Positions 4,625-56,613 of a stretch of DNA of 64,000 nucleotides are shown here, in pieces. The notes beneath the pieces are model-generated. The model was not told the DNA's origin. It saw only the letters and a program-made list of their open reading frames with translations, and made no database searches. Origin of the DNA: Candidatus Heimdallarchaeota archaeon. GTDB taxonomy: Archaea; Asgardarchaeota; Heimdallarchaeia; Heimdallarchaeales; Kariarchaeaceae. Each line of letters opens with the position of its first letter. Position 1 is the first letter of the stretch. Where the stretch lies: assembly GCA_015523565.1 (NCBI GenBank), contig WAKA01000056.1, positions 1,861 through 65,860 on the forward strand, read 5' to 3'. A program made the position numbers and the translations under genes.

Positions 4625-5395
4625 TTATTTAAATAAATTAGTTTTTGAGATTTCCCGTATTTCTGTTGCTGACAATTCTTCAAGATCCTTCCTTGTCAAT
4701 TCCAAAACTTTGGAAGATGTAAATGCATTTAAACTGCCAACAATGGGAATTAAACGATAAATATCAATAGTGGTTTGTGAATCTAAGGGAATCCCCGTTG
4801 CATCCTTTACATAGCCAAAAAGATTTCTGCGTGCCTCTAATTCAAAGATACTGAATTCCAATATGTCATAGGTTTTATCAAGCCATTTTTCTGCATTGAA
4901 ATCAGTTAACCAAACGTGGATTGATTTATTTCCAGTGAATACAAAGCGAAGCTTTTCCTCTAAAACATCATCGATTTGTAGAGCGTGGATAATTGATTCC
5001 TCTAGATTTAAATCGCTTTCCAAAACAGCGATGCCAGAATTGATCATGAATGATGAAAAATCTTTTTCTTTCCCAACCTCCCGAGGATTTAACCATTGGG
5101 TAGAGGAATAAAATATTCTTATTGGAAAAAAACCCTTGCTGATGCCAATTGGGATTAGGTTCTTTAATTTTTCTTGGGTAAAAGTCCGTTTGTTAAAGAG
5201 ATTATGAAGAGAGCGCCAAAGATATTTCTGTGTGTTTGCATCAAAGTAAAATCCCCTGAAAAATCTAAATTTAAATGAAATCATCGGATCTGGAGTAAAA
5301 GAATCAGCATAATAATTACTTATAATTTCCAAGGTTTCAGAATCTATGCATTTTACAGCCTTCTTTACCCAAGGGGATGTGATTTTCATTCGCAT
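4625..5395 (-). CDS. Archaeo-eukaryotic primase (AEP) fold protein, compact PriS-like
   Basis: PriS-like landmarks occur in the correct order: IFYSSTQWLNP (cf. vYySsAxYxxP), VLESDLN (motif I position, reading E-x-D), FTGNKSIHVW (motif II, SGxxGxH) and TTIDIYRLIPIVGSLN (motif III, vTxDxxRLhRhPgSLh). At 256 aa it is shorter than typical PriS. Confidence 0.45.
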   Translation of the reverse strand: MRMKITSPWVKKAVKCIDSETLEIISNYYADSFTPDPMISFKFRFFRGFYFDANTQKYLWRSLHNLFNKRTFTQEKLKNLIPIGISKGFFPIRIFYSSTQWLNPREVGKEKDFSSFMINSGIAVLESDLNLEESIIHALQIDDVLEEKLRFVFTGNKSIHVWLTDFNAEKWLDKTYDILEFSIFELEARRNLFGYVKDATGIPLDSQTTIDIYRLIPIVGSLNAFTSSKVLELTRKDLEELSATEIREISKTNLFK

Positions 5396-23159: not shown

Positions 23160-24001
23160 AACTCCAATTGCCAAACAAAAAAATAATTAAAGAATTAATT
23201 GAGAATCTGGAAGAGATTCATATAATCTCTTCAGATGTGTTTTCAACAAATATTCATGAACGAAAAATGTTGCTGGCAGTATTGTATTATGTAATCGTCC
23301 CGTTAATTAACTTGCTAATACTTTCCTTGGCACCCATTGTGCAGAAGGGAACAGGCATCGCCATTTTTCAGGCTCAATTTGCAACAACTGAGTTGGTCAA
23401 AAATTATTTTGTCAGTTTCTTTTTGGGGCAGATTTTGATTGCATTACTCACAGCAGATCAAATAGCAGGTGAGTTTGAAAGGGATACTTTCGCTTTGCTT
23501 AGAAGCAAACCAATACATGATTTCTCAATTGTCATTGGAAAATTCCTTGGAATGATCTATACATTGATTGTCATGATATTGCCTGTCTCCATTGTATATT
23601 ATTATTCATTGCTGGGTATTTATGGAGCGGAATGGCCTTGGACATATTTAAAAAGCCTAGATGAAATACTGGCAATTTCCTTGTTAATAGTCCTGATGCT
23701 AGGCTCTGTTGTGGGAATTTCTTTATTGGCATCATCTATTTTTTCAAAAAGCCTTCATGCAATTATAGCAACATTGTTGGGATTGTTTGGGATAAATCTC
23801 ATGGGAGATGCATTATTTGGGAAAAATAATTATTTAGCCCTTTCATGGTATGTTGATGCCATTTTTCCAGACATATTCTATAATCTGGAACCACTAAAAG
23901 ACATTCCCAACGCAATCTCACTTGTCCTTATTCTATTGACTGCAAATGTGTCTTTTCTTTTGGTCTCATCAATAATACTGATGAACCGGGAAGTATATTG
24001 A
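23156..24001 (+). CDS. ABC-2 type transporter permease
   Basis: It has six hydrophobic helices and a 4-nt overlap with the ATPase gene. Confidence 0.7.
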   Translation: MKLQLPNKKIIKELIENLEEIHIISSDVFSTNIHERKMLLAVLYYVIVPLINLLILSLAPIVQKGTGIAIFQAQFATTELVKNYFVSFFLGQILIALLTADQIAGEFERDTFALLRSKPIHDFSIVIGKFLGMIYTLIVMILPVSIVYYYSLLGIYGAEWPWTYLKSLDEILAISLLIVLMLGSVVGISLLASSIFSKSLHAIIATLLGLFGINLMGDALFGKNNYLALSWYVDAIFPDIFYNLEPLKDIPNAISLVLILLTANVSFLLVSSIILMNREVY

Positions 24002-24453
24002 GGTTGATGAAAGCATATTTCCTTGAAAAAGAGAAAATCCCCGACAACTTTCTGATTGAATTGCAGAAAGAAATATTGGAAAATGATGGCGAGAAAAAAA
24101 TTGGCGCACTGTTAAGTTTTGTAGGAGTTGTCCGTTCCACATCACATGATCCTAATAAAAAAGTGGTTGGAATGGAAGTTGAAACATGGGAGGAAATGGG
24201 GAATGAGAAATTAAATGAAATAGTTTTACAGGTATTTGAAAATTCAGGGATTCATGATGTAAGGCTTGTACATGTATATGGAACCCTAAATCTTGGAGAC
24301 CCGATTGTTTTCATTGTCATTGGAAGTGAACACAGAAATGAGGCATATCAGGCAATGGAAAAATTCATAGACGCGTACAAAAACAAGGCGCCTGTCTGGA
24401 AAAAGGAAATCTATGCAGATGGGTCTGAACAATGGATTAGGACAGCACATTAA
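23998..24453 (+). CDS. moaE: Molybdopterin synthase catalytic subunit MoaE
   Basis: GALLSFVGVVR and PVWKKEIYADGSEQW match MoaE. The ATG at 24007 is a likely alternative start. Confidence 0.85.
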   Translation: MRLMKAYFLEKEKIPDNFLIELQKEILENDGEKKIGALLSFVGVVRSTSHDPNKKVVGMEVETWEEMGNEKLNEIVLQVFENSGIHDVRLVHVYGTLNLGDPIVFIVIGSEHRNEAYQAMEKFIDAYKNKAPVWKKEIYADGSEQWIRTAH

Positions 24454-51046: not shown

Positions 51047-51538
51047 ATGTCAGGAATGAAGATTACAAAGCCAGATGGAACAGTTGTGGAGATAGACAAG
51101 AGTATGCTCAAGTCACTTTCTCCAGAACAACTAACGGCTTTGATTTCTTCATTGACACAGCCAGTGCAGACACAGGTTCCAAGTAAGCCACAAGAACCAG
51201 CTACAAAAATCTTGCGTACACCAGAAGAAATTTGGAATAGTGGAAAGCGTGAAAGAGTTGGATTGTTTTTGGCAAATCAATATGCAGTTGGAGTGGTTTT
51301 GGAAACAACAGACATCCATAGGGATTGGATGGAAAGTCTTGTGTCCAAAAATTATGATCTTTATATAGAAAAATCACATTTGACCCAATATTTGACACGT
51401 CTTGCTGAAATGGGCTATCTCAAGAAAGAGAAAATACAGGGACGAGGCATTCGTTGGACAATCCTGCAAAAACTCCATGATGATTACCCACAAGTGCCAA
51501 TAGAGAACTTTCACAAGATTGCATTGGAAATTACATAG
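51047..51538 (+). CDS. Hypothetical protein with a possible C-terminal winged-helix domain
   Basis: [25 protein letters not shown] looks like a wHTH recognition helix followed by a wing. The assignment is weak. Confidence 0.4.
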
Positions 51539-53096
51539 GCATGTTTGCATGTTTTTTGGGAGGGACATGTTCTCTTTTGCTAAGGGTGAAATTCAAAGCC
51601 TTGATAAGCACTTCACGAGTTTCTTCTGGGAAAATGACGCCATCAATAAGTCCAAGTTCTGCCGCCACATATGGGTTTGAAAACTGTTCCTCATACGATT
51701 TGATCAATTCCTGTCTTTTCTTGTCGGGATTGGAGGCGGAAGAGATTTCTTTTCTGAAAATTATATTTGCCGCACCTTTAGCCCCCATAACCGCGATTTC
51801 TGCGGTAGGCCATGCAAACACCTGGTCAGCACCAGAATGTCTACTTCCAAGAACATCATAAGCACCTCCAAAATCTTTTCTGAGAATTATTGTCAATTTG
51901 GGAACAATTGCTTCACAATAGGCATACAAGAGCTTTGCACCATGACGGATAATGCCACCAAACTCTTGGTCTGAACCAGGGAGAAAACCTGGAACATCAA
52001 CAAAAGTTATAACTGGGATATTGAATGCATCACAAAATCTAATGAAACGGGCGGCCTTATCTGAGGCGTTTATATCTAAGGCGCCTGCCATAATTTTTGG
52101 CTGGTTGGCAACTATTCCAACAGGATAACCATCCAATCTAGCAAAACCGACAACAATGTTTTGTGCATATTCTTTTTGAACTTCAAAAAATGAATGATGG
52201 TCAACAACACGAGTAATAACATCCTTTACGTCAAATGGTTTGTTTGGGTTGTCTGGAATAATGTCCCTAAGTTCCATCGGGTCAGTTGGAGGAGCAACAG
52301 GAGCAGATCGGGGGGGATCTGACAGGTTGTTTTGTGGAATGTATTCCAATAGTTTGCGAATATATGCAAGGGCAACTTCTTCATTTGGTGCCCTGAAATG
52401 AGCTACACCGCTGGTCTTATTGTGCGTCTGTGCACCACCCAATTCTTCAAAGCTTATTTCCTCGCCAGTGACTTCCTTGACAACATTGGGACCAGTTATG
52501 AACATGTAGCTGGAATTTTCAACCATGATAATGAAATCAGTCAAGGCGGGGGAGTAAACGGCACCACCAGCACATGGACCCATGATAACAGAAATTTGTG
52601 GAATGACCCCTGAAGCCAAGACATTTGCCCTGAAGATTTTTCCATAACCTGCTAAAGAGGCAACCCCCTCTTGAATTCGTGCACCTCCAGAATCATTCAA
52701 TCCGATAATCGGCAAACCATTTTTCATGGCAAAGTCCATGATCTTCAATATCTTTTCTGCATGCATTTCTCCCAACGCACCCCCGAAAACAGTGAAATCT
52801 TGGGCAAAAATACAGACTTTCCTTCCATTTATTGTGCCATAACCAGTGACAACCCCATCACCCAATATTTTTTTCTTGTCCATTCCAAATGCATTAGTTC
52901 GGTGAACAACAAATTTGTCCATTTCCACAAATGAGTTGCTGTCCAACAATGTCTCAATTCTTTCCCTTGCAGTCATTTTGCCCTTATTGTGTTGTGCCTC
53001 AATTCTCTTTTCACCGCCACCCAGTTCAGCAAGGAGGTTTTTCTCTTTCAAGACCTCAAATTTTTCTTCCTTGTTCACATGATAGGGGATTATCAC
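51531..53096 (-). CDS. Acyl-CoA carboxylase carboxyltransferase subunit (propionyl-CoA carboxylase beta / methylmalonyl-CoA decarboxylase alpha family)
   Basis: It matches over the full length: [50 protein letters not shown] and [10 protein letters not shown]. Confidence 0.9.
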
Positions 53097-53179
53097 TTAG
53101 AAAAAAAGATTGCCAAATAAGCATGCACATTAGTTGTACAGGAACAAATATTCATTAGGAAACAAATCATGTTTGTCAT

Positions 53180-53470
53180 GTGGTAACAGTCACCATCGAA
53201 ATTCACAGGTCTTTGAGGAAAGCAGAGGATCCAAAAGAATATGTTGTGGAAGTCAATGAATCCGACAGGACACTAGGAGAGATTATCGCAGAAGCCCTTT
53301 CGACACATCCAGAAATAAAAGATGAAGTATTAGATGGCACAAAATCCAAGCCTGGAATTTTATATATTGCCAACAAAACGGAATTGAGAAGCTTGGGGAT
53401 TGTAGATACGCCATTCAATCCTGATGAGGACTTGAAACTCAAGATAGTGCCTGTTTTACACGGGGGATGA
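53180..53470 (+). CDS. Urm1-like ubiquitin-related modifier / sulfur-carrier beta-grasp protein ending in Gly-Gly
   Basis: The 96-aa ORF has a GTG start. Its C-terminal half, KPGILYIANKTELRSLG...DEDLKLKIVPVLHGG*, parallels the Urm1 signature (RPGIxxLINDxDWELxG...DGDxIxFxSTLHGG*). Confidence 0.7.
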   Translation: MVTVTIEIHRSLRKAEDPKEYVVEVNESDRTLGEIIAEALSTHPEIKDEVLDGTKSKPGILYIANKTELRSLGIVDTPFNPDEDLKLKIVPVLHGG

Positions 53471-53516
53471 ACATAAGGAAAAGACTAAAACAGGTCGGGA
53501 TTGTCTCTTAATTGGA

Positions 53517-54254
53517 ATGGAAGAAAAAGGTACCGTTGTAGCAATAATTAGTGGCGGCTTGGATTCGACATCAATGCTTTGGTTTCTCCATAGTAAAGGA
53601 TATTCAATTGTAGAGGCAATCTCATTTGATTACGGACAAAAACATGTCAAGGAACTTGATGCCGCGAAAAAAATCATTCGACGTTTTAATTCAGAATTTT
53701 CGCAAAATGTCAAGCACCAAGTGGTTGATCTTCGAAATGTTGGAAGATTGATTGCAAAGGGCGCTTTGACAGGAAATGAAGAAGTACCCGCAGAAATGTA
53801 TGATAAAGAAAGCCAGAGAATTACAATCGTTCCAAATAGAAATGGAATTATGCTCAACATAGCCGCGGGAAGGGCAGTAACCCTTGAATCCAGATTTATT
53901 GCTTACGCCGCACATGCAAGTGACTACAGCGTATACCCAGACTGTAGACCTGAATTCATAGAGGCAATGGATAAGGCAATCTATTTGGGAAATTTATGGA
54001 CGCCAGTAAACATTATTGCCCCATTCCAAAAGATGACAAAAAAAGAGGTTACGCAACAAGGGTTGGCATTGGGAGCCCCATTAGAGTTGACGTGGAGTTG
54101 TTATAAAGGACAGGATAGACCATGCATGGAATGTGGAACTTGCCTTGAGAGAACCGAGGCATTCTTGCTCAACAATACAAGGGACCCCGCACTCTCAGAA
54201 GAAGAATGGCAATTGGCAATCCAAAAATATGAAGAGCACAAGCAAAAAGGGTAA
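53517..54254 (+). CDS. queC: 7-cyano-7-deazaguanine (preQ0) synthase QueC
   Basis: The PP-loop (VAIISGGLDST) is present, followed by SFDYGQKH and YPDCRPEFIEAM. The zinc-site cysteines are WSCY...CMECGTCLER. Confidence 0.9.
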   Translation: MEEKGTVVAIISGGLDSTSMLWFLHSKGYSIVEAISFDYGQKHVKELDAAKKIIRRFNSEFSQNVKHQVVDLRNVGRLIAKGALTGNEEVPAEMYDKESQRITIVPNRNGIMLNIAAGRAVTLESRFIAYAAHASDYSVYPDCRPEFIEAMDKAIYLGNLWTPVNIIAPFQKMTKKEVTQQGLALGAPLELTWSCYKGQDRPCMECGTCLERTEAFLLNNTRDPALSEEEWQLAIQKYEEHKQKG

Positions 54255-54393: not shown

Positions 54394-55188
54394 TTGTTGA
54401 TGAGCAAAGAGGCAGTGCCCCGTATTAATTTTTATTATACACTCCTTTCACTAATTTTCACAGTCTCTTCCTTTATCTCCATAATTAGGGCATCGTTGAA
54501 AACCCTTGAAGAAACACCGATGCAACCGACAACGATTGTTTCAATAACCATTTCCTCAATTCTGTTTTCTATTTCCATACCTGTAACGGTTTTATTGTTC
54601 TTATCCACTCAGGGCAAATTTCTTGATCAGATAAGTGTGATTTTACCTAAAAACGCAGTTAATTCTGCCAACAAATGGGTTGAAAGTTTCATTTTTAATG
54701 CATCGCCTGTCCAACAATTCATATTTATTATAGGATCTGTCGGAACCGTTGCATTGTTAGGGCAGAGTCCAGTGGGGTTTGACACTGGCTTGTTTATTCT
54801 TATGTTGGGAGCAACTGTTCTTACAATCCATTCTGTTGAACAAAAGAACAAATTAAAAAAGAGAATACTGGCAATTGTTGAAAAAGAGAAAAGAATGGAT
54901 CTAAGAGCACTTTCTAAAATGACACGTACAAGCAGGCAAAATTTGACGAGCCTCATATTGGATCTCGCAGCAGATGGAAAGCCAATAATGATAGACTACC
55001 ATGAGGGAACAGTATACTTGACAAATCTGATCAAACCAGTTCAGGAAACATTTCCCATACCTTCAGAAATTGTACAACCTAGACAGACACAGACAGGAGA
55101 AATCTGTGCCTATTGCGGAGAGACAAATCCAGTTCCTGGAGCAAAGTTTTGCATTAAATGTGGAGCATCAATGGTACCCGCCAAGTAA
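54394..55188 (+). CDS. Membrane protein with a cytoplasmic wHTH-like segment and a C-terminal zinc ribbon (hypothetical)
   Basis: It has about 4 N-terminal TM helices and then the segment MDLRALSKMTRTSRQNLTSLILDLAADG. The C-terminus has CAYCG...CIKCG. Confidence 0.5.
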   Translation: MLMSKEAVPRINFYYTLLSLIFTVSSFISIIRASLKTLEETPMQPTTIVSITISSILFSISIPVTVLLFLSTQGKFLDQISVILPKNAVNSANKWVESFIFNASPVQQFIFIIGSVGTVALLGQSPVGFDTGLFILMLGATVLTIHSVEQKNKLKKRILAIVEKEKRMDLRALSKMTRTSRQNLTSLILDLAADGKPIMIDYHEGTVYLTNLIKPVQETFPIPSEIVQPRQTQTGEICAYCGETNPVPGAKFCIKCGASMVPAK

Positions 55189-55191
55189 GGT

Positions 55192-56202
55192 TTGAGTCAC
55201 ATGACAGAGGAAAAAGTAATTGATTTGCTAACCAATATATCTTCCAAGGGATTCACCTTACTTCAAGCAAAAGCATATATTGCAGTTTTAAAATTGGGGG
55301 AGGCAACAGGTTCAGCCATAGCCGAACAGGCAGGAATTAACCGTTCGAAAATCTATGATGTTCTTGGTGACCTTGAGCTAATGGGTGCAGTTCAGAGAAT
55401 ATCTCGAGAAGGAAAGACAAGATATATTGGTGTGGATCCAAAAATAGTCTTCAAAATACTGAAAGAGCGTTTTGTTGAAGATCTGGACAATTCGATTGAA
55501 ATCTTGGAAAATGTGATAAGTGCTAAGGAGTTGATAGATGAAAAGGCTGTGACATTTTCAAGGATCCAAATCAAGAATTTAAACGTAAATGAATTCAAGA
55601 TGATGATTTCTACTACGGAAAAAGCAAGATCACAATTTTTGGAAATGCTTTCTCCCGAAAATCGACCGAAGGAACATGTTATCCTGTTGGAACTTGAGCA
55701 AAAAAGAGAGGAGGACTTTATCCTTTTAATAGGAGATTACGAAGCTTTGCTTTTCAACCCCCCCACATCCAACCAGATCAAAAATGCATTAAGGTTTTTG
55801 GGAAGGGACTTTTCTTTGTTTTTGCAGGGAGTTGTTCAACACCTCTGGGATGAAAGAATTCCAGCACATATAGACGAAGAAATTAGAGAAGGAGAAAGGA
55901 AGCTTTTGGCAAAGGGAGTGGCAACTAACATGCATTACATCCTAGCCAACGGCACAATTCGCCATCAACACCTAAGACCAGTTCCTGTTCTGATAACAGA
56001 CAGTCATATCTCTTTCCTTTATCAAGGTGAGGAAGATCCCAAAATCCCTATAAGGAATATCAGAAACATAAAGACAGAAGGAAACTTTATAGAATGTGAA
56101 ATATTCAGTGCAACAGGAATGTTTTTGGCAAGGCTGACATTTACGCTATTGACAAATGCCATGGCAATCTCAAATTTAATTGACCTTCTTTCGAAAAGAT
56201 AA
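55192..56202 (+). CDS. TrmB-family transcriptional regulator
   Basis: The N-terminal wHTH is GFTLLQAKAYIAVLKLGEATGSAIAEQAGINRSKIYDVLGDLELMGAV. The track start is TTG, and the ATG at 55201 is an alternative. Confidence 0.75.
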   Translation: MSHMTEEKVIDLLTNISSKGFTLLQAKAYIAVLKLGEATGSAIAEQAGINRSKIYDVLGDLELMGAVQRISREGKTRYIGVDPKIVFKILKERFVEDLDNSIEILENVISAKELIDEKAVTFSRIQIKNLNVNEFKMMISTTEKARSQFLEMLSPENRPKEHVILLELEQKREEDFILLIGDYEALLFNPPTSNQIKNALRFLGRDFSLFLQGVVQHLWDERIPAHIDEEIREGERKLLAKGVATNMHYILANGTIRHQHLRPVPVLITDSHISFLYQGEEDPKIPIRNIRNIKTEGNFIECEIFSATGMFLARLTFTLLTNAMAISNLIDLLSKR

Positions 56203-56613
56203 AATCTCATGAACCAACCATTCCATTGTTTCCTCAAAATTTTCAAGAATGGAATGTTCCCAGATACGGATTACCTTCCAATTACAGTTTCTTAAAAGTT
56301 CATCATCCAGCTTGTCCCTATTTCTATTGCGATTTATTTTATTTCGCCAGAATTCCACATTGCTTTTTGGTTCCTTGTAGCATTTGGGACAACCATGCCA
56401 GAAACAACCATCAACAAATATTGCGATTTTATCTTTTGGGAAGGCTATGTCGGGCTTGACTATTTTTTCACCGCAGTCAATTTTATAATGAATCCGGTAC
56501 CTGAATTTCATGTGCCAAAGGAATCGCCTTACATTCAGTTCTGGTTTTGTATTCTTACTGCGGATATGACTCATGATTTTGGAACGAATTTCTGGACTGA
56601 ATTTATCAGGCAC
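56176..56613 (-). CDS. vsr: Very-short-patch repair (Vsr) endonuclease
   Basis: IRSKIMSHIRSKNTKPE...RPDIAFPKDKIAIFVDGCFWHGCP...FWRNKI matches Vsr over its full length. Confidence 0.85.
   Translation of the reverse strand: MPDKFSPEIRSKIMSHIRSKNTKPELNVRRFLWHMKFRYRIHYKIDCGEKIVKPDIAFPKDKIAIFVDGCFWHGCPKCYKEPKSNVEFWRNKINRNRNRDKLDDELLRNCNWKVIRIWEHSILENFEETMEWLVHEILSFRKKVN

Follow-up and report, generated by a model that had tools for sequence, protein, structure and literature searches.

Urm1, known from eukaryotes and from the Sulfolobales (4wwm), is a beta-grasp protein of about 95 to 100 amino acids (aa) that is translated in its mature form, with a free C-terminal Gly-Gly. For the archaea, the available sections of Makarova and Koonin 2010 (PMC2948915) link the genes of ubiquitin-like proteins to PP-loop enzymes of the Ncs6/MesJ type and describe Urm1-like proteins only in Sulfolobales, and the available text of a 2024 review confines archaeal Urm1 to the Crenarchaeota (PMC11354881). 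A second described system is that of Haloferax volcanii, made up of SAMP1 and SAMP2, UbaA and NcsA. Enzymes of the QueC family have also been found encoded beside a small protein. These, Cap9 of type IV CBASS (cyclic oligonucleotide-based antiphage signalling systems) and QatC, are divergent paralogues from bacterial defence whose target is a partner protein, and the accessible portions of two reports describe the type IV CBASS enzymes as attaching a deazaguanine to a protein (bioRxiv 10.1101/2025.04.06.647259; PMC13279940). The locus considered here lies in a stretch of 64,000 nucleotides (nt) from the genome of a Candidatus Heimdallarchaeota archaeon (contig WAKA01000056.1, positions 1,861 to 65,860), referred to as the window. 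In it, an Urm1-type beta-grasp gene, called Ubl for its ubiquitin-like product, is directly 5' of the gene for the PP-loop enzyme QueC. An initial annotation of this DNA had left it open whether the adjacency was chance or the sign of a shared function. Comparison with related genomes favours chance, and the two genes appear to have been brought together by the loss of a third.

The Ubl gene is at 53180..53470 on the forward strand and encodes 96 aa. It begins with GTG and its TGA stop follows directly upon the free C-terminal Gly-Gly (...VLHGG), which agrees with the open reading frame as annotated initially. There is an in-frame stop upstream at 53156-53158, no alternative start is present from there to 53180, and the alignment of the orthologues begins where the GTG start does. 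In all, 41 related genomes were compared, including four species of one genus: that of the window (G000) and its relatives G001, G002 and G003. The Ubl sequence on its own finds matches in 40 of the 41 (E≤1). Of the 31 other order-level genomes that were sampled, 29 have a best match of E≤3.7e-16 to a profile made from the alignment of 28 family members (A1), and the remaining two (G004 and G029) have none. Residues H94, G95 and G96 are invariant in this alignment; the C-terminus is exactly Gly-Gly in 27 of the 28 members and has two extra residues in the other. The Ubl reading frame is a genuine gene and has been conserved throughout the order. The family is nonetheless narrow. When 1.84 billion representatives were searched exhaustively with HMMER, 18 proteins were identified with E≤1e-3, and a word-indexed protein search returned only the Ubl itself and one relative of 89% identity.

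As had been noted initially, queC follows on the same strand at 53517..54254, separated from the Ubl stop by 46 nt (53471..53516). The junction between the two genes is not an assembly artefact, because 52900-53577 is covered by a contig assembled from another sample of that study, which bridges the Ubl stop and the QueC start, although this other sequencing run is possibly a source of the window DNA and so is not independent of the window assembly. A single nucleotide difference was seen in the Ubl gene: at position 53461 the window has a C and the contigs of both runs have a T, which is a synonymous change in the His94 codon.

In the genomes compared, the linkage is confined to one genus, which answers the proposal that conservation of the adjacency be sought in relatives. 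QueC is within 1.5 kb of Ubl at 3 of 20 loci (the window locus itself, G001 and G002) and within 5 kb at 3 of 29 public loci (L041, L042 and L047), all from the genus of the window. Among the 41 genomes, a Ubl match and a QueC match are on one contig only in G000 to G003 and in two genomes assembled as single contigs, where the distance between them is 176 kb (G015) and at least 380 kb (G020). Separate contigs in fragmented assemblies are not proof of distance, and it is for this reason that analyses of the gene flanks matter. Neither the 37 other order-level genomes nor, in a sample of 201 Asgard genomes, the 15 from outside the order that have both a match to the Ubl profile and QueC showed any Ubl-QueC linkage. 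A collection of loci centred upon QueC held 9 loci, mostly bacterial; it was too small and was not used.

The presence and absence of the two genes are also discordant by Asgard family. In family f5 a Ubl-like match is found in 10 of 10 genomes and QueC in 0 of 10, in f7 the counts are 4 of 4 and 0 of 4, and in f23 they are 6 of 7 and 0 of 7; family f13 shows the reverse, with 1 of 40 against 25 of 40. Other beta-grasp carriers may be among the weaker profile matches from beyond the order, given that the MoaD of the window genome itself scores 2e-4 with the Ubl profile. A functional pairing of Ubl and QueC is not supported by these distributions. By the grounds for refutation that the initial annotation itself named, the shared function suggested for them is not borne out: the adjacency is confined to one genus, within which a gene intervenes or the orientation differs, and the genome encodes in other places a separate archaeal MoaD, a MoeB/UbaA-like E1 and an NcsA-type thiolase.

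The intervening gene belongs to family DUF72. In G001 and G002 the order is a 163 aa protein (w163) on the forward strand, an acyl-CoA carboxyltransferase on the reverse strand, and then Ubl, DUF72, QueC, a C-terminal zinc-ribbon protein (ZnR) and a TrmB-family regulator, all forward. The window has the same order without DUF72. In G003 the forward block of DUF72, QueC, ZnR and TrmB comes first, followed on the reverse strand by Ubl, w163 and the carboxyltransferase, such that Ubl is convergent with the DUF72-QueC block and about 2 kb from QueC. In all three relatives the DUF72 gene is directly upstream of queC (L041:5295-6095 in G001, L042:485-1279 in G002 and L072:2833-3630 in G003), and in G001 and G002 it starts 2 to 3 nt after the Ubl stop. 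Of the 41 related genomes, 34 have DUF72. None was detected in the window genome, where a family search gave 0 candidates and tblastn gave no match better than E 2.6.

The 46 nt spacer of the window aligns with the spacers between DUF72 and queC in G001 and G002. The three species have kept a run of purines and, after it, an A/T-rich box some 30 nt ahead of the start of queC, at roughly 53483-53492 in the window, and this box may be a promoter element belonging to queC itself. The simplest account of these sequences is that DUF72 was lost at the window locus, which would have brought the Ubl stop to within 46 nt of the QueC start and left the region upstream of queC intact. Ubl and QueC would then be direct neighbours because the gene between them has gone. 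The linkage of DUF72 with queC is itself limited to the genus; in G007 the two genes are about 1.6 kb apart and on opposite strands. The tight adjacency probably arose recently, in this species, as a side effect of losing a gene from a synteny block shared at the level of the genus, and the pairing looks accidental. Fairly good confidence is placed in this explanation as a whole, that is, in an Urm1-type carrier role for Ubl together with a chance adjacency.

Some observations weigh against this explanation. The genome is 90% complete and the DUF72 gene could sit on unassembled DNA, even though it is absent from this locus. In addition, Ubl and the queC block are on the same strand in G000, G001 and G002, and the distance from Ubl to DUF72 in the latter two is only 2 to 3 nt; co-transcription of Ubl with queC is therefore possible in this sub-clade. 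Loose regulatory coupling could follow, with Ubl transcribed together with (DUF72-)queC-ZnR-trmB in these three species and the modifications 2-thiouridine at tRNA position 34 (s2U34) and archaeosine co-expressed without any joint chemistry. The shared strand, the spacing of 46 nt here and of 2 to 3 nt in the two relatives, and the location of archaeal Ubl genes, often beside genes for tRNA modification according to the sections available of PMC2948915, are all in keeping with such coupling. It is nevertheless judged unlikely, as Ubl is convergent with the block in G003 of the same genus, no other genus has the linkage, and the A/T-rich box kept upstream of queC could serve as that gene's own promoter. 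Read-through transcription from Ubl into queC may occur, and nothing points to a common biochemical function.

A closer relationship would be one in which Ubl provides sulfur or another group to QueC or to its product, or in which QueC modifies Ubl. This was the carrier-dependent variant of 7-deazaguanine chemistry raised by the initial annotation, and it is extremely unlikely. In favour of it are the same-strand adjacency at 46 nt and the ability of QueC-family enzymes to modify proteins in the defence systems, as described in the portions of the two reports introduced above. However, the QueC of the window has the features of a canonical 7-cyano-7-deazaguanine synthase. It matches Pfam QueC at 2.8e-60, passes the TIGR00364 equivalog model (189 bits; cut-off 150.3), and can be aligned with two QueC proteins of solved structure, 3bl5 and 2pg3, such that the PP-loop and the four zinc cysteines match. 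Its motifs, SGGLDS and C-x7-C-x2-C-x2-C, have the same form in G001, G002, G003 and G007, with or without Ubl nearby. The C-x7 spacing has one residue fewer than the C-x8 form quoted in PMC13082051 and is the same in the four relatives checked that reach that region. This is the sole full QueC match in the genome and, judged by its sequence, it is an ordinary housekeeping enzyme of the preQ0/archaeosine pathway that would need no carrier.

The recent origin of the adjacency, from the loss of an intervening gene, and the discordant distributions of Ubl and QueC across the Asgard families also argue against joint chemistry. The words 'ubiquitin', 'MoaD' and 'grasp' do not occur in the main text of a survey of QueC-family gene neighbourhoods (PMC13082051). 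Unlike Cap9 and QatC, which available text describes as divergent paralogues with partner proteins, the QueC here is canonical and its neighbour is not conserved. It can hardly be credited, then, that Ubl is co-transcribed with QueC in the species of the window, and possibly also in the two relatives nearest to it, and acts on or with the enzyme, whether as a covalent tag regulating archaeosine or by supplying a group for an undescribed 7-deazaguanine derivative. If true, this would be a new kind of chemistry, with a PP-loop enzyme newly recruited to a ubiquitin-like carrier; the comparative evidence is against it.

Other deazaguanine genes are scattered in the window genome, with TGT on contig C204 and QueD on C95, compared to QueC on C56, the contig of the window. 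In Asgard family f13 the QueC domain is found within open frames of 520 to 566 aa (for example G190:C9:69875-70486, in an open frame of 552 aa), and this suggests that QueC is fused there.

What kind of protein Ubl is can be addressed from its predicted structure and from its family. The AlphaFold2 (AF2) model is a beta-grasp (predicted local distance difference test score, pLDDT, 91.7; predicted template modelling score, pTM, 0.83). Structure comparison against Urm1, SAMP and MoaD had been proposed, and all three are among the top Foldseek matches of the model. Yeast Urm1 2ax5 (2.1e-5) and Haloferax SAMP1 3po0 (3.1e-5; template modelling score, TM, 0.70) come first, followed by mouse Urm1 1wgk (5e-5), mycobacterial MoaD and Chaetomium Urm1. 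The Urm1, SAMP1 and MoaD matches range from E 2e-5 to 6e-4, with MoaD chains at about 1e-4. The modelled fold is that of the sulfur-carrier class of ubiquitin-like proteins.

Profiles are more informative as to type. When the family profile was compared with the sequences of solved structures, 1xo3 was the best match (2.4e-4), then 1wgk, 4idi, 4wwm (the Sulfolobus Urm1) and 7q5n, with chains of the ThiS/MoaD type ranking behind the Urm1 chains. The alignment to mouse Urm1 (1xo3 and 1wgk) covers profile positions 37-93 and matches P-G-I-L and L-H-G-G. The C-terminal block that had been read as Urm1-like is thus borne out, K-P-G-I-L ... L-H-G-G of the profile being aligned to the mouse protein. 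With members scanned singly at E≤0.1, Pfam Urm1 is matched by 20 of the 28 (best 1.1e-5) and Pfam ThiS by none of them. At the same threshold the NCBIfam matches are Urm1_like in 26 (best 1.2e-9), SAMP1 in 14 and moaD_arch in 3. A genome-wide search with PF02597 (E≤1) does not recover the Ubl gene. At the level of the family, these comparisons support a protein closer to Urm1 than to MoaD or ThiS. The initial description of it as Urm1-like, rather than as a plain MoaD/ThiS protein, is in line with the Pfam and NCBIfam counts and with the Urm1 structures being the best profile matches.

There are also points that count against so precise a class. The fold does not discriminate Urm1 from SAMP1 or MoaD, and the profile match to the Urm1 structures is modest (E 2.4e-4) and restricted to the C-terminal two thirds. 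The window protein scores 15.1 bits with Pfam Urm1 (PF09138; cut-off 21.8), 12.6 bits with NCBIfam Urm1_like (NF053661; cut-off 70) and 24.5 bits with NCBIfam SAMP1 (NF041918; cut-off 60). SAMP1, not Urm1, is its best single NCBIfam match. Because it is below every curated cut-off for such proteins, the label used here is Urm1-type and not certified Urm1.

The likeness to described Urm1 is in the fold, length and free Gly-Gly, in the C-terminal K/R-P-G-I-L ... L-H-G-G block, in the best family-level match, and in the presence of an enzyme of the Ncs6/NcsA type and of an E1-like enzyme in the genome. The differences are the scores below the curated cut-offs, the N-terminal third that the profile leaves unaligned, a candidate E1 without detectable rhodanese, and the narrowness of the family, with its 18 proteins at E≤1e-3. 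SAMP1 is a close structural match by 3po0, but the score is 24.5 bits against the 60-bit cut-off. The available part of PMC2948915 assigns SAMP2 to the ThiS family, whereas no Ubl member matches Pfam ThiS.

A MoaD role for Ubl must be considered here, as the partner of the MoaE encoded in the window, in the synthesis of the molybdenum/tungsten cofactor. The moaE gene (23998..24453, forward strand; Pfam MoaE 9.1e-25) is outside the Ubl locus; it has an ABC-2 permease, a MoCF_biosynth gene and moaC as neighbours and, as was initially reported, no moaD beside it. The best single NCBIfam match of Ubl, SAMP1, is a MoaD-type protein, and the accessible text of PMC11323500 indicates that functional redundancy among ubiquitin-like sulfur carriers is possible in Thermococcus. 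MoaD of the archaeal type also shares the fold class and the C-terminal Gly-Gly with Ubl, as well as the Foldseek match of E about 1e-4. Yet the sole ThiS/MoaD-family match above cut-off in the genome is a separate protein of 91 aa on contig C117, which passes the archaeal MoaD model TIGR01687 (67.1 bits; cut-off 49.5). In addition, moaD_arch is reached at E≤0.1 by only 3 of the 28 Ubl members, the number that match Pfam ThiS/MoaD is 0 of 28 against 20 for Urm1, and Ubl is 29 kb away from moaE. Because the genome has a proper MoaD, the role in cofactor synthesis that had been suggested for Ubl is unlikely as its main function, and overall this identity is regarded as very unlikely.

The partners of an Urm1-type carrier are to be found elsewhere in the genome. 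The initial annotation had seen no E1 or Ncs6 gene in the window and had called for a genome-wide search for E1, Ncs6 and other MoaD genes. The ThiF matches are on contigs C97, C95 and C104 and the PP-loop match on C202, all away from the window. A stand-alone E1 of 350 aa, MoeB/UbaA-like, is encoded on C95. The single PP-loop match (PF01171) above cut-off is an NcsA-like enzyme, whose best NCBIfam match is NcsA (NF047749, 7.6e-63), although it is below the cut-off of that model. The other two contigs carry genes of a different kind: on C97 a ubiquitin-family gene overlaps an E1 gene (L036, C97:18943-20173), and on C104 genes for E1, E2 (UQ_con), JAB and RING proteins are clustered, with one for a TPR/winged-helix protein after them (L037, C104:1957-5573). 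The genes on C97 and C104 are the eukaryote-like set for ubiquitin that Asgard archaea are known to have.

From the Urm1 and SAMP2 pathways, together with homology and the gene inventory, a mechanism can be proposed. The E1 on C95 would adenylate the free C-terminal Gly-Gly of Ubl, the adenylated end would be converted to a thiocarboxylate, and the sulfur would be handed to the NcsA/Ncs6-type enzyme encoded on C202 for the formation of 2-thiouridine at tRNA position 34. It is possible that the activated C-terminus is also attached to proteins as a second role. By analogy, the most likely role of Ubl is therefore the usual one of Urm1 and SAMP2, tRNA U34 thiolation, possibly with protein tagging. 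Two findings do not favour this assignment. No rhodanese domain was found by Pfam in the C95 E1, unlike the eukaryotic Uba4, and no thiolation partner gene adjoins Ubl in any of the lineages examined; because of the latter, the assignment to the pathway rests on homology and gene inventory. The Haloferax volcanii system is similar in these respects, having a Gly-Gly ubiquitin-like protein, a MoeB/UbaA-like E1 without rhodanese and an unlinked thiolase of the NcsA type. The same unlinked arrangement of carrier, E1 and thiolase genes is given for Halobacteria in the sections available of PMC2948915.

The neighbours that Ubl does have vary by lineage, and in the 5 kb flanks of the 29 public loci they never include a thiolation enzyme. 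At five loci from sister genera (L044, L045, L046, L048 and L050) Ubl is beside a homologue of the PAC2 family of proteasome assembly chaperones (Pfam 4e-35; for example L006:1916-2689), head-to-head in four of them and on the same strand in one. This hints at a link with the proteasome like that of Sulfolobus Urm1. It could be, then, that Ubl is mainly a protein tag that feeds the proteasome, rather than a carrier for thiolation, as the text available of PMC4569737, which links Sulfolobus Urm1 to the proteasome pathway, would allow. This remains doubtful, if conceivable, as PAC2 is on another contig (C9) in the window genome, and that genome already has a ubiquitin gene with its E1, and the E1-E2-JAB-RING cluster, for tagging. 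A tagging role would in any case be compatible with thiolation, since Urm1 proteins do both.

In 19 of the 29 loci, those of the Heimdallarchaeum type (L051-L069), a protein of 300 to 314 aa is encoded directly upstream of Ubl on the same strand, for example at L057:3906-4847 with Ubl at 5001-5165. Its N-terminus matches the Asgard gelsolin-like domain 7c2f_B (8.6e-7). The gelsolin-like gene of the window genome is, as PAC2 is, on a contig other than that of Ubl. The possibility that this protein is a divergent PAC2, which would have made the Ubl-PAC2 link order-wide, was rejected on an hhalign probability of 1.5%.

The most persistent neighbour of Ubl in this family of genomes is the 163 aa protein, homologues of which adjoin Ubl in 8 of the 29 loci, usually in convergent orientation. 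In the window it is encoded at 51047..51538 on the forward strand. It belongs to no known family and has weak winged-helix matches only, and an atlas search with it gave scores that were all below 0.9 and no lead. The acyl-CoA carboxyltransferase (51531..53096, reverse strand; Pfam Carboxyl_trans 3.7e-206) is divergent from Ubl, and it is beside Ubl in G001, G002 and G003 as part of the genus-level synteny block. On the other side of the locus, the zinc-ribbon protein (54394..55188, forward strand; Pfam Zn_Ribbon_1 5.7e-05) comes after queC in each of the genus's four species. The TrmB-family regulator (55192..56202, forward strand; Pfam TrmB 5e-16) closes the (DUF72)-queC-ZnR-trmB block, and its end is overlapped on the opposite strand by a gene for a Vsr-type DNA mismatch endonuclease (56176-56613, reverse strand).

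The literature has little that bears on such a pair. A term search of the available text of Makarova and Koonin 2010 (PMC2948915) gave no occurrence of QueC, queuosine or archaeosine. The one paper found to name both Urm1 and QueC is on the tRNA-modification genes of Arabidopsis, with one occurrence of each and no sign of a link in the text available. Among the matches listed for literature pairing Urm1 with Asgard, Heimdallarch or Lokiarch, no description of an Asgard Urm1 was found in the portions of text accessible, although the supplementary tables of Asgard genome papers may list one.

The locus offers a caution with regard to gene order. The tight same-strand adjacency of Ubl and queC appears to have been made by the loss of an intervening gene, and the gene order of a single genome is easily over-read. 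Apart from QueC, Ubl represents a lineage-specific Urm1-type family that is well conserved across the Heimdallarchaeota genomes and that goes unnamed by the curated models at their cut-offs. The occurrence of an Urm1-type protein among those archaea that are nearest to the eukaryotes, in a genome that also has genes for ubiquitin, E1, E2, RING and JAB proteins, would add a little to what is understood of how the eukaryotic repertoire of ubiquitin-like proteins was assembled.

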